The notes below the pieces were generated by a model. The model searched no databases. It saw only the letters and a program-made list of their open reading frames with translations, and was not told the DNA's origin. A stretch of DNA of 64,000 nt from the NCBI RefSeq assembly GCF_050920415.1, contig NZ_CP169309.1; one strand, 5' to 3'. Position 1 is the stretch's first letter. Every line of letters starts with the position of its first letter. Shown here one piece after another: positions 8,879-12,064 of this stretch. The position numbers and the translations under genes are program-made. Origin of the DNA: Escherichia coli (GTDB taxonomy: Bacteria > Pseudomonadota > Gammaproteobacteria > Enterobacterales > Enterobacteriaceae).

Positions 8879-11800
8879 ATGAAAAGAATGTTAATCAACG
8901 CAACTCAGCAGGAAGAGTTGCGCGTTGCCCTTGTAGATGGGCAGCGTCTGTATGACCTGGATATCGAAAGTCCAGGGCACGAACAGAAAAAGGCAAACAT
9001 CTACAAAGGTAAAATCACCCGCATTGAACCGAGTCTGGAAGCTGCTTTTGTTGATTACGGCGCTGAACGTCACGGTTTCCTCCCACTTAAAGAAATTGCC
9101 CGCGAATATTTCCCTGCTAACTACAGTGCTCATGGCCGTCCCAACATTAAAGATGTGTTGCGTGAAGGTCAGGAAGTTATTGTTCAGATTGATAAAGAAG
9201 AGCGCGGTAACAAAGGCGCAGCACTGACCACCTTTATCAGCCTGGCAGGTAGCTATCTGGTTCTGATGCCAAACAACCCGCGCGCGGGTGGTATTTCTCG
9301 CCGTATTGAAGGCGACGACCGTACCGAATTAAAAGAAGCACTGGCAAGCCTTGAACTGCCGGAAGGCATGGGGCTTATCGTGCGCACCGCTGGCGTCGGC
9401 AAATCTGCAGAGGCGCTGCAATGGGATTTAAGCTTCCGCCTGAAACACTGGGAAGCTATTAAAAAAGCCGCTGAAAGCCGCCCTGCCCCGTTCCTGATCC
9501 ATCAGGAGAGCAACGTAATCGTTCGCGCATTCCGCGATTACTTACGTCAGGACATCGGCGAAATCCTTATCGATAACCCAAAAGTGCTCGAACTGGCGCG
9601 TCAGCATATCGCTGCATTAGGTCGCCCGGATTTCAGCAGCAAAATCAAGCTGTACACTGGTGAAATTCCGCTGTTCAGCCACTACCAGATCGAGTCGCAG
9701 ATCGAATCCGCCTTCCAGCGTGAAGTCCGTCTGCCGTCTGGTGGTTCTATTGTTATCGACAGCACTGAAGCGTTAACTGCCATCGATATCAACTCCGCAC
9801 GCGCGACCCGCGGCGGCGATATCGAAGAAACCGCGTTTAACACCAACCTCGAAGCTGCCGATGAGATTGCTCGTCAGCTGCGCCTGCGTGACCTCGGCGG
9901 CCTGATTGTTATCGACTTCATTGACATGACGCCAGTCCGCCACCAGCGTGCGGTAGAAAACCGTCTGCGTGAAGCGGTGCGTCAGGACCGTGCACGTATT
10001 CAAATCAGCCATATTTCTCGCTTTGGTCTGCTGGAAATGTCCCGTCAGCGGCTGAGTCCATCGCTGGGTGAATCCAGCCATCACGTCTGCCCGCGCTGCT
10101 CCGGTACCGGCACCGTGCGTGACAACGAATCCCTGTCGCTCTCTATTCTGCGTCTGATTGAAGAAGAAGCGCTGAAAGAGAACACCCAGGAAGTCCATGC
10201 CATTGTTCCTGTGCCAATCGCTTCTTACCTGCTGAACGAAAAACGCTCTGCGGTAAATGCCATTGAAACTCGTCAGGACGGCGTGCGCTGTGTGATTGTG
10301 CCAAACGATCAGATGGAAACCCCGCACTACCATGTGCTGCGCGTACGCAAAGGGGAAGAAACCCCAACCTTAAGCTACATGCTGCCGAAACTGCATGAAG
10401 AAGCGATGGCGCTGCCGTCTGAAGAAGAGTTCGCTGAACGTAAGCGTCCGGAACAACCTGCGCTGGCAACGTTTGCCATGCCGGATGTGCCGCCAGCGCC
10501 AACGCCAGCTGAACCTGCCGCGCCTGTCGCAGCCCCAGCACCTAAAGCTGCATCAACAACACCAGCAGCTCCTGCACAACCAGGGCTGTTAAGCCGCTTC
10601 TTCGGCGCACTGAAAGCGCTGTTCAGCGGTGGTGAAGAAACCAAACCGACCGAGCAACCGGCACCGAAAACTGAAACGAAACCGGAACGTCAACAGGACC
10701 GCCGTAAGCCACGTCAGAACAACCGTCGTGACCGAAATGAACGCCGCGACACACGTAGCGAACGTAATGAAGGCAGCGATAATCGCGAAGAAAACCGCCG
10801 TAATCGTCGCCAGGCACAGCAGCAGACTGCCGAGACGCGTGAGAGCCGTCAGCAGGCTGAGGTAACGGAAAAAGCGCGTACCACCGACGAGCAGCAAGCG
10901 CCGCGTCGTGAACGTAGCCGCCGCCGTAATGATGATAAACGTCAGGCGCAACAAGAAGCGAAAGCGCTAAATGTTGAAGAGCAATCTGTTCAGGAAACCG
11001 AACAGGAAGAACGTGTACGTCCGGTTCAGCCGCGTCGTAAACAGCGCCAGCTGAATCAGAAAGTGCGTTACGAGCAAAGCGTAGCCGAAGAAACGGTAGC
11101 CGCACCAGTGGTTGAAGAAACTGCCGCTGCCGAAACCATCGTTCAGGAAGTGCCTGCTCCGCGTACAGAACTGGCGAAAGTCCCGCTGCCAGTCGTAGCG
11201 CAAACTGCGCCGGAACAGCAGGAAGAGAACAATGCTGATAACCGTGATAACGGTGGCATGCCGCGTCGCTCTCGCCGCTCGCCTCGTCACCTGCGCGTAA
11301 GTGGTCAGCGTCGTCGTCGCTATCGTGACGAGCGTTACCCGACCCAGTCGCCAATGCCGTTAACCGTAGCGTGCGCGTCTCCGGAACTGGCCTCTGGCAA
11401 AGTCTGGATCCGCTATCCGATTGTACGTCCGCAAGATGTACAGGTTGAAGAGCAGCGCGAACAGGAAGAAGTACAAGTGCAACCGATGGTGACTGAGGTC
11501 CCTGTCGCCGCCGCTGTCGAACCGGTTGTTAGCGCACCGATTGTTGAAGAAGTGGCTGAAGTCGTAGAAGCCCCCGTTCAGGTTACCGAACCGCAACCGG
11601 AAGTGGTTGAAACGACGCATCCTGAAGTGATTGCCGCCGCGGTAACTGAACAGCCGCAGGTGATTACCGAGTCTGATGTTGCCGTAGCCCAGGAAGTTGC
11701 AGAACACGCAGAACCGGTGGTTGAACCGCAGGAAGAGACGGCTGATATTGAAGAAGTTGCCGAAACTGCTGAGGTTGTGGTTGCTGAGCCTGAAGTTGTT

Positions 11801-12064
11801 GCTCAACCTGCCGCGCCAGTCGTCGCTGAAGTCGCAGCAGAAGTTGAAACGGTAGCTGCGGTTGAACCTGAGGTCACCGTTGAGCATAACCACGCTACCG
11901 CGCCAATGACGCGCGCTCCGGCACCGGAATATGTTCCGGAGGCACCGCGTCACAGTGACTGGCAGCGCCCTACTTTTGCCTTCGAAGGTAAAGGTGCTGC
12001 AGGTGGTCATACGGCAACGCATCATGCATCTGCCGCGCCTGCGCGTCCGCAACCTGTTGAGTAA
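8879..12064 (+). CDS. rne: Ribonuclease E
   Basis: 1061-aa ORF; N-terminal catalytic domain ([30 protein letters not shown]...) and Arg-rich/acidic low-complexity C-terminal scaffold. Confidence 0.98.

Follow-up and report, generated by a model that had tools for sequence, protein, structure and literature searches.

Long open reading frames (ORFs) run along the strand opposite the 3′ half of rne, the Escherichia coli gene for RNase E. Are any of these antisense frames genes, or do they arise passively from the sequence that encodes the RNase E tail? We examined this question in a segment of the E. coli chromosome (the window, 64,000 nucleotides). The composition, coding signal and conservation of the antisense ORFs indicate that they are, with little doubt, non-functional shadow ORFs that arise passively from rne and not genes.

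Composition of the RNase E tail

In NZ_CP169399.1, a record 100% identical to the window, the gene is annotated as rne, and PGAP annotates nothing on the strand opposite it. Pfam recognizes an S1 domain (PF00575, 9.6e-13), RNase_E_G (PF10150, 1.1e-98) and the thioredoxin-like RNase_E_G_Thio (PF20833, 1.9e-31) in the N-terminal half, as well as a PNPase_C match at residues 1022-1058. The features of the gene and its flanks are as follows.

8518-8854: autoregulatory rne5 5′ UTR element upstream of rne (Rfam RF00040, 260 bits vs a gathering score of 180)
8879..12064, plus strand: rne, ribonuclease E CDS, 1061 aa and stop (ORF list, Pfam, annotation of the identical record)
10466..12061, plus strand: non-catalytic, intrinsically disordered C-terminal half, the degradosome scaffold, residues 530-1061 (boundaries from PMC4435900, mapped and checked by translation)
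10571..10624, plus strand: RNase E tail segment of 18 residues, identical to K-12 (coordinates from PMC4435900)
10688..10810, plus strand: AR1 arginine-rich RNA-binding microdomain, residues 604-644, one amino acid unlike K-12 (PMC4435900)
11033..11071, plus strand: RNase E tail segment, identical to K-12 (coordinates from PMC4435900)
11264..11320, plus strand: AR2 arginine-rich microdomain, residues 796-814, identical to K-12 (PMC4435900)
11378..11428, plus strand: RNase E tail segment, identical to K-12 (coordinates from PMC4435900)
11939..12061, plus strand: PNPase-binding site, residues 1021-1061 (Pfam PNPase_C; PMC4435900)
12083..12106, plus strand: intrinsic terminator-like hairpin of rne (hairpin prediction)
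12189..12217, minus strand: strong terminator-like hairpin downstream of flgL, at the position of the 3′ end of the K-12 FlgO sRNA (hairpin prediction; K-12 FlgO annotation)

The RNase E proteins of the window and of K-12 share their length (1061 aa) and domain order, with no indels. All microdomains lie at their K-12 positions; MTS, HBS, AR2, EBS and PBS are identical in the two proteins, and AR1 differs by one residue. None of the 20 amino-acid changes between them lies outside the C-terminal half, and 19 affect linkers. At the DNA level, the rne allele of the window shares 95.7% identity with K-12, and likewise with 5,410 of the 5,425 complete E. coli genomes. PMC4435900 describes low-complexity motifs of R-rich and AEPV-rich kinds in the non-catalytic region of RNase E, and the R-rich and Ala/Glu/Pro/Val-rich low-complexity linkers of the window fit this account of the K-12 protein.

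A sequence-only reading of the window had called the tail low-complexity, which the mean entropy over 40 residues bears out (3.13 bits in the C-terminal half vs 3.72 in the N-terminal half). The “Arg-rich and acidic/Pro-Ala-Val-Glu-rich repeats” of that reading exist as blocks of composition, rich in Arg/Gln/Glu at about 10680-11040 and 11220-11400 and in Val/Glu/Ala/Pro at 11400-11940, but not as repeats: Tandem Repeats Finder returned a single 9-bp × 2.2 array in the tail, and the direct-repeat families there are short and only 62-90% alike. With repeat families this weak and short, tandem or direct DNA repeats are ruled out as the cause of the open frames, in favor of compositional bias.

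Compared with the N-terminal half, the C-terminal half is poor in Leu (2.1 vs 10.2%), Ile (1.3 vs 7.9%), Ser (3.6 vs 6.6%) and Phe (1.1 vs 2.6%). The sense strand of the C-terminal half is likewise poor in T (16.5 vs 21.6%), and the AT skew of the rne sense strand reaches +0.54. In the C-terminal half, T falls to 4.7% at codon position 1 (vs 11.0% in the N-terminal half) and to 17.3% at position 2 (vs 28.0%), while position 3 holds 27.6% (vs 25.9%) and four-fold families 35% (vs 31%). Since T is depleted at positions 1 and 2 and not at position 3, amino-acid choice is the source of the T-poverty to which these data point. RNase E favors AU-rich single-stranded sites, and selection on the rne mRNA at the nucleotide level, for instance against U-rich sites that RNase E can cleave, might be proposed in place of amino-acid composition as the origin of the stop-poor strand. 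The low T content and the skew agree with that proposal; the synonymous third positions do not. With the depletion limited to positions 1 and 2, U avoidance is largely refuted, and we assign this explanation a negligible probability. The 73 rne genes of other species that we compared are T-poor as well (median T of 15.9 vs 21.8%), and they too carry long antisense runs.

Antisense open reading frames

The antisense ORFs opposite the tail, all taken from the ORF list, are the following.

11360..12052, minus strand: spurious antisense ORF, 230 aa, TTG start, codon-aligned frame
10623..11354, minus strand: spurious antisense ORF, 243 aa, TTG start, no in-frame ATG
10143..10541, minus strand: spurious antisense ORF, 132 aa, GTG start, same frame as 10623..11354
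10589..10954, minus strand: spurious antisense ORF, 121 aa, codon-aligned, a piece of the K-12 565-codon frame
10967..11290, minus strand: spurious antisense ORF, 107 aa, codon-aligned, a piece of the K-12 565-codon frame
10375..10644, minus strand: spurious antisense ORF, 89 aa, third antisense frame, in which the wobble positions of both strands coincide

ORF 11360..12052 is present exactly as the earlier reading gave it; it belongs to a stop-free run of 235 codons (11363..12067), with antisense position 1 opposite sense position 3. The second example of that reading, a single ORF at 10143..11354, is really two ORFs of one frame, 10143..10541 and 10623..11354, split by two stops (TAG at 10542-10544 and TGA at 10623-10625). 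The latter ORF lies within a 301-codon stop-free run (10626..11528), in which antisense position 1 is opposite sense position 1. The further statement that the tail generates many such frames is correct: the rne C-terminal half holds 2.5 embedded antisense ORFs per kb that reach 100 aa or more, and 91% of its length is covered by them; for the 59 other annotated genes checked, the values are 0.59 per kb and 21%. Of the embedded antisense ORFs in the annotated genes analyzed (about 50 kb of coding sequence, with pgaA, pgaB and pgaC left out), just two reach 200 aa, and both are opposite the rne tail.

The composition of the protein very probably accounts for these frames, as follows. Ala, Glu, Val, Pro, Arg, Gln and Thr make up most of the scaffold, in which Leu, Ile, Phe, Ser and Tyr are scarce; because codons of the abundant residues seldom have T at position 1 or 2, the sense strand is T-poor. 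Antisense TAA, TAG and TGA each require TTA, CTA or TCA on the sense strand. In the codon-aligned frame these triplets are Leu and Ser codons, and stops on the opposite strand are sparse because these residues are rare in the tail and the three codons are non-preferred. The remaining antisense stops cluster at the few structured microdomains and Leu/Ser positions, and neutral drift at synonymous sites of rne would decide whether a frame stays open or breaks. The codon-aligned antisense stops of the tail are four, at S559 (TCA), L571 (TTA), L697 (CTA) and L828 (TTA).

Is the length of the frames more than chance would give? The codon-aligned run of 233-235 codons is as long as composition predicts: null means are 242-254 codons, and 48-63% of simulations reached the observed length. 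The 301-codon run exceeds its own-frame nulls, being matched in 0.05% of codon-order shuffles and about 1% of synonymous resamplings. Simulations give 301 codons or more in some frame 8-18% of the time, and the run is thus unremarkable once three frames are allowed for (0.08-0.18). K-12 has a codon-aligned antisense frame with 565 codons free of stops, and so have seven of the eight other mainstream E. coli that were sampled. Under nulls based on the codon usage of the neighboring genes or of the rne N-terminal half, this frame is stop-free with a probability of only about 0.0035-0.015.

Artifacts of this type are already known and ordinary. Mir et al. 2012 (PMC3454372), with reference to Merino 1994 and Silke 1997, put long ORFs in frame −1 down to codon usage, and shadow ORFs in general are explained by the usage of codons and amino acids. 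The rne tail shares with these shadow ORFs the rarity of TTA, CTA and TCA, a run of the length that composition leads one to expect, and the lack of coding signal and conservation. Unlike the classic frame −1 cases, the rne tail is stop-poor in two antisense frames, and its antisense ORFs are roughly four times as dense as those of the neighboring genes; the effect is amplified because the tail is an extremely Leu/Ser-poor, low-complexity protein region. Codon-aligned antisense runs of 214-242 codons are also found in other genes of the window, such as flgH and flgJ.

Coding signal, selection and conservation

The sequence-only reading had proposed codon-usage scoring as a check, and the outcome was as it predicted, with the antisense ORFs 2 to 6 SD under real genes. 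They score −0.28 to +0.10 bits/codon (log-likelihood z of −2.0 to −6.1), where real genes have 0.288 ± 0.093 and the sense frame of the same stretches has 0.26-0.42, like real genes or above them. The lowest score is that of 11360..12052 (−0.279 bits/codon, z of −6.1), the 230-aa translation of which has a bizarre composition (18% Arg, 14% Phe, 10% Asn and 4% Cys). Advocates of antisense genes hold that poor codon usage is no argument against function in an overlapping frame.

ATG is absent from the 301-codon antisense frame. Simple scans, which weak or alternative signals could escape, detected no Shine-Dalgarno-like sequence upstream of the antisense start codons and no σ70-like consensus promoter on either strand of 10000-12400. 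None of the antisense translations contains a Pfam domain above threshold; the only match of 10967..11290, to DUF5654, reaches 14.3 bits, far under the cutoff of 23.8. Rfam identifies no RNA family in 8200-12500 except rne5.

Between the window and K-12, rne differs by 137 substitutions, of which 118 are at sense third positions. ORF 10375..10644 apart, dN/dS is 1.4-5.3 in the antisense frames and 0.02-0.14 in the sense frame. Individual antisense values are 1.4 for 11360..12052, 3.0 for 10623..11354 and 5.3 for 10143..10541, where the sense value is 0.02, and 20 to 40 antisense amino-acid changes accompany 7 to 12 in RNase E. The antisense dN/dS of 0.26 for 10375..10644 was set aside as a sign of constraint, as it probably reflects the coincidence of the wobble positions of both strands in that frame. 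Stop-creating synonymous changes are not depleted either, having occurred at 3 of 24 candidate codons compared with 22 of 559 controls. Purifying selection on the antisense frames is absent.

Nor are the frames conserved. The 301-codon frame has a stop at position 11054 in all nine other E. coli compared and 2 to 10 stops in each of seven other species; the run was made by one change that is synonymous in rne (L725, CTC to CTG). With all other strains interrupted and a single synonymous change responsible, selection holding this frame open is ruled out. ORF 11360..12052 is intact in Escherichia and one Enterobacter only, with stops in five of the six other genera compared, and 10143..10541 contains 2 to 6 stops in relatives outside Escherichia. 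The 565-codon frame of K-12 is cut by four stops in the lineage of the window, three of them synonymous in rne, and neither E. albertii nor any of the other genera compared has it intact.

Alternative readings and consequences for annotation

A young overlapping gene, of the kind proposed for EHEC and Pseudomonas, is the alternative that frames of this length bring to mind, the likeliest candidates being 11360..12052 and the 565-codon frame of K-12-type strains. We judge it very improbable. The lengths (230-243 aa in the window, 565 codons in K-12), the low probability of the K-12 frame under codon-usage nulls, the position of the 301-codon run above its own-frame null, and published claims that long alternative-frame ORFs are in excess and sometimes translated all speak for it. 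They are opposed by antisense dN/dS above 1, with more changes in the antisense products than in RNase E, by the interruption of the frames in close relatives, four times over for the K-12 frame in the lineage of the window, and by the lack of any deficit of stop-creating synonymous changes. The 301-codon frame without ATG, the failure of simple scans to find Shine-Dalgarno or promoter-like sites, the odd composition of the 230-aa product, the missing domains and inconsistent gene calls count against a gene as well. A recent birth limited to mainstream E. coli, where the K-12 frame would be a lineage-specific overlapping gene or translated antisense transcript that the lineage of the window lost or never had, we consider no less far-fetched. 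EHEC ano, asa, pop and others and P. aeruginosa olg1/olg2 (PMC5960689, PMC9927249 and PMC8850804) are, like the ORFs described here, long and embedded antisense in an annotated gene. Those cases are backed by RNA-seq, Ribo-seq or proteomic signals, the Pseudomonas pair also by purifying selection; opposite rne, selection was tested and is absent, and conservation is lacking. The main survey of E. coli antisense gene candidates does not mention rne, either in its text or in 18 supplementary files, and a light literature check yielded no evidence for an antisense product of rne.

The opposite strand might instead give rise to a non-coding antisense RNA that regulates rne, with the open frames incidental. 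Antisense transcription is widespread in E. coli according to the general literature, and rne is tightly autoregulated through its 5′ UTR element, but none of our results points to such an RNA in particular. The consensus scan of 10000-12400 gave no promoter-like site on the minus strand, and rne5 is the sole Rfam element. Any read-through from flgKL would meet the strong terminator-like hairpin at 12217-12189, which would halt minus-strand transcription ahead of rne, and the substitution pattern fits a protein-coding sense frame only. Such an RNA is therefore scarcely probable. Returning to shadow ORFs as the preferred explanation, the antisense frames are most likely not expressed as protein.

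Codon scores, dN/dS, conservation and database matches all agree with the earlier verdict that these ORFs are spurious and unfit for annotation. The antisense ORFs of the rne tail should stay unannotated, and they add nothing new to RNase E biology. The main value of the result lies in annotation hygiene, as the tail is prone to yield “hypothetical proteins” of 100-560 aa from ORF finders and gene callers. The locus also serves well as a negative control when pipelines look for overlapping genes on the antisense strand: its frames, very long and even “statistically unexpected”, fail the tests of constraint and conservation.

False calls are likeliest where indel errors of long reads break rne, and such entries already exist: GenBank STJ44767.1, XNM79131.1 and MFP1558695.1 match antisense translations of the tail. 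Among 5.8 billion protein clusters, two antisense translations have 18 and 2 sporadic matches, those of 10623..11354 being 2 weak ones only. The two database cases examined are both from assemblies with a frameshift-broken rne. In GCA_900449325.1 and GCA_025847755.1, frameshifts split rne and its neighbors, and an antisense ORF was called in the gap; rne, shattered in these error-rich assemblies, is intact in the window.

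Composition of the RNase E tail

The open frames opposite the 3′ half of rne are a known type of artefact lying on a known gene. E. coli strain MFDS1022581, whose record NZ_CP169399.1 is an identical match to the initial 50 kb of the window, has rne annotated at the equivalent of 8879..12064 and no PGAP gene on the opposite strand. The features of the locus are as follows.

Features of the rne locus (strand given where assigned)
8518-8854: rne 5′ UTR element RF00040
8879..12064, plus: rne, 1061-aa ORF with S1, RNase E/G, thioredoxin-like, and PNPase-binding domains
10466..12061: non-catalytic C-terminal half of RNase E ("tail"), residues 530-1061, boundaries per PMC4435900
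10143..10541, minus: antisense ORF, 132 aa
10375..10644, minus: antisense ORF, 89 aa
10589..10954, minus: antisense ORF, 121 aa
10623..11354, minus: antisense ORF, 243 aa
10967..11290, minus: antisense ORF, 107 aa
11360..12052, minus: antisense ORF, 230 aa
10626..11528, minus: stop-free run of 301 codons, antisense position 1 opposite sense position 1
12083..12106, plus: terminator-like hairpin between rne and flgL
12189..12217, minus: strong terminator-like hairpin between rne and flgL, convergent with the plus-strand hairpin

The tail is of low complexity, as an earlier sequence-only reading had held: its mean 40-residue entropy is 3.13 bits, versus 3.72 for the N-terminal half, and it consists of blocks made mainly of Arg/Gln/Glu/Asn or of Val/Glu/Ala/Pro, in a region known for R-rich and AEPV-rich low-complexity motifs (PMC4435900). 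The "repeats" of that reading were overstated; TRF yields nothing beyond a 9-bp × 2.2 array, and what direct-repeat families there are consist of short copies 62 to 90% alike.

On the sense strand, every antisense stop corresponds to a TTA, CTA, or TCA triplet, and in the codon-aligned frame (frame −1, antisense position 1 opposite sense position 3) these triplets are Leu or Ser codons. The tail contains 2.1% Leu, 1.3% Ile, 1.1% Phe, and 3.6% Ser, compared with 10.2, 7.9, 2.6, and 6.6% in the catalytic half, and only four codon-aligned stops (S559 TCA, L571 TTA, L697 CTA, and L828 TTA). Sense-strand T falls from 21.6% in the catalytic half to 16.5% in the tail. This loss is restricted to codon positions 1 (11.0 to 4.7%) and 2 (28.0 to 17.3%), and its cause is therefore amino acid choice; a nucleotide-level bias is excluded by position 3, which is not depleted (25.9% versus 27.6%). 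The pattern recurs in 73 rne genes of other gamma- and betaproteobacteria, with a median T content of 15.9% for the tail versus 21.8% for the catalytic half; antisense runs of 200 codons or longer occur in half of these genes. Codon usage has been described as a source of long frame −1 ORFs (PMC3454372, citing Merino 1994 and Silke 1997).

Length and coding potential of the antisense frames

The excess of antisense ORFs noticed from the sequence is genuine. Opposite the tail, embedded antisense ORFs of 100 aa or more number 2.5 per kb (91% covered), versus 0.59 per kb (21% covered) in the 59 other annotated genes analyzed, and the only two of at least 200 aa among the annotated genes analyzed are both opposite the rne tail. 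One of the two ORFs cited as examples, 11360..12052, has exactly those coordinates, while the other, "10143..11354," is in fact two ORFs of the same frame, with stops between them at 10542-10544 and 10623-10625.

The null models were of three kinds: codon-order shuffles, synonymous resampling based on the codon usage of the window, and synonymous permutation. The length of the codon-aligned run (233 to 235 codons) is what composition leads one to expect, with null means of 242 to 254 codons and 48 to 63% of simulations reaching or exceeding the observed value; ordinary neighbors such as flgH and flgJ also have codon-aligned runs of 214 to 242 codons. The 301-codon run lies above the nulls for its own frame (P ~0.0005, 0.0115, and 0.0095), although a run as long in any frame appears in 8 to 18% of simulations. 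It owes its existence to a single rne-synonymous change, L725 CTC to CTG, and the stop at 11054 is retained in all nine other E. coli examined.

That these ORFs should not be annotated as genes is borne out by coding scores, substitution patterns, and stops in relatives alike. Under a codon log-likelihood model trained on the other annotated genes, which answers to the codon-usage check that had been proposed, real genes score 0.288 ± 0.093 bits per codon and the antisense ORFs −0.28 to +0.10 (z from −2.0 to −6.1), while the sense frame across the same spans scores 0.26 to 0.42. Nei-Gojobori dN/dS against K-12 is 1.4 to 5.3 for the ORFs of the two main antisense frames, versus 0.02 to 0.14 in the sense frame; the value of 0.26 for the 89-aa ORF at 10375..10644 probably arises because wobble positions in that frame coincide with those of rne. 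In a protein-guided codon alignment, the 301-codon frame contains 2 to 10 stops each in K-12, E. albertii, Citrobacter, three Enterobacter, Superficieibacter, and Klebsiella, and the frame of 11360..12052 is stop-free solely in Escherichia and one Enterobacter. The 301-codon frame has no ATG, no Shine-Dalgarno-like sequence is visible upstream of the TTG or GTG starts of the antisense ORFs, a simple consensus scan found no sigma70-like promoter on either strand in 10000-12400, and no Pfam family scored above threshold for the antisense ORFs. Their predicted proteins are of odd composition (e.g., 18% Arg, 14% Phe, 10% Asn, and 4% Cys).

Searching 5.8 billion protein clusters with the two longest antisense translations returned 18 and 2 matches, sporadic throughout, a few of them labeled "hypothetical" or "uncharacterised protein [Escherichia coli]" (STJ44767.1, XNM79131.1, MFP1558695.1). 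In the two contexts inspected (GCA_900449325.1 and GCA_025847755.1), rne and its neighbors are fragmented by frameshifts, apparently due to indel errors, and an antisense ORF is called in the freed space; in GCA_025847755.1, flgJ, flgK, flgL, and rluC are split as well. In the NCBI-sourced gene calls of these assemblies, antisense rne ORFs (202 and 391 aa) figure among the proteins, illustrating a route by which the artefact enters databases. The main survey of E. coli antisense overlapping gene candidates mentions rne neither in its text nor in its 18 supplementary files.

A longer open frame in mainstream E. coli

Of the mainstream E. coli sampled, K-12 MG1655 and seven of eight others have no stop in the codon-aligned antisense frame over the full length of the tail.

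Window-equivalent 10373..12067, minus: 565-codon antisense frame (~1.7 kb) of K-12 MG1655

In the lineage of the window, four stops cut this frame into pieces of 60, 125, 130, and 235 codons, and three of the four arose by changes synonymous in rne (two TTG to TTA, one CTG to CTA). TTA at L571 and L828 is also found in E. albertii, and 2 to 11 stops interrupt this frame in each of the other genera; with polarity drawn from few outgroups, this suggests that mainstream E. coli acquired the 565-codon open frame recently, as a derived condition. A young overlapping gene there is the residual alternative, which we regard as very improbable. The stop-free K-12 frame has a probability of only ~0.0035 to 0.015 under simple codon-usage nulls, which is notable on its own, but the locus was picked for its long ORFs and thousands of genes had equal opportunity. 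Where K-12 codons are one synonymous step from an antisense stop, 3 of 24 took that step, versus 22 of 559 matched controls (Fisher P = 0.078), a direction contrary to constraint.

Strain lineage and surroundings of rne

Judged over window positions 1..20667, the strain belongs to a rare, divergent E. coli lineage. Its rne has at least 99% identity to only 4 of 5,425 complete genomes and ~95.7% to the remainder, the flanking fab and flg regions being ~98.0 to 98.1% and ~96.2 to 97.1% identical; the catalytic half is nearer K-12 (96.2%) than E. albertii (91.9%). Compared with K-12, rne carries 137 substitutions, 118 at sense third positions, and no indels. All 20 amino acid changes are in the tail, 19 of them outside the microdomains in low-complexity linkers, and the MTS, HBS, AR2, EBS, and PBS microdomains are identical to K-12, a pattern that fits fast-evolving linkers separating what would be constrained short linear motifs.

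Downstream, flgL and flgK are convergent to rne. No Rfam family was reported at either intervening hairpin; by coordinate transfer from K-12, the minus-strand hairpin corresponds to the end of the FlgO sRNA (flgL 3′ UTR). Upstream, a minus-strand ORF lies antisense to RF00040.

8430..8798, minus: ORF of 122 aa, 98% identical to K-12 YceQ (b1085, "DUF2655")

This ORF is annotated in K-12 and lacks a PGAP annotation in NZ_CP169399.1. It has no Pfam match and may be a further shadow ORF, kept solely through conservation of the structured rne leader.

Gene coordinates equal those of NZ_CP169399.1 exactly as far as ghrA (55356) and are offset by 181 bases from ~56.3 kb on (pgaA, 58281..60704 versus 58462..60885); 181 bp of that record are therefore missing from the window, at ~55400..56300, somewhere around a tRNA-Ser gene or a frameshifted GGDEF pseudogene. 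Between flgG and flgF (~18561..18595), a short stretch with a median of 22 matches per E. coli genome (132,812 in total) is presumably a REP/BIME-type extragenic element.
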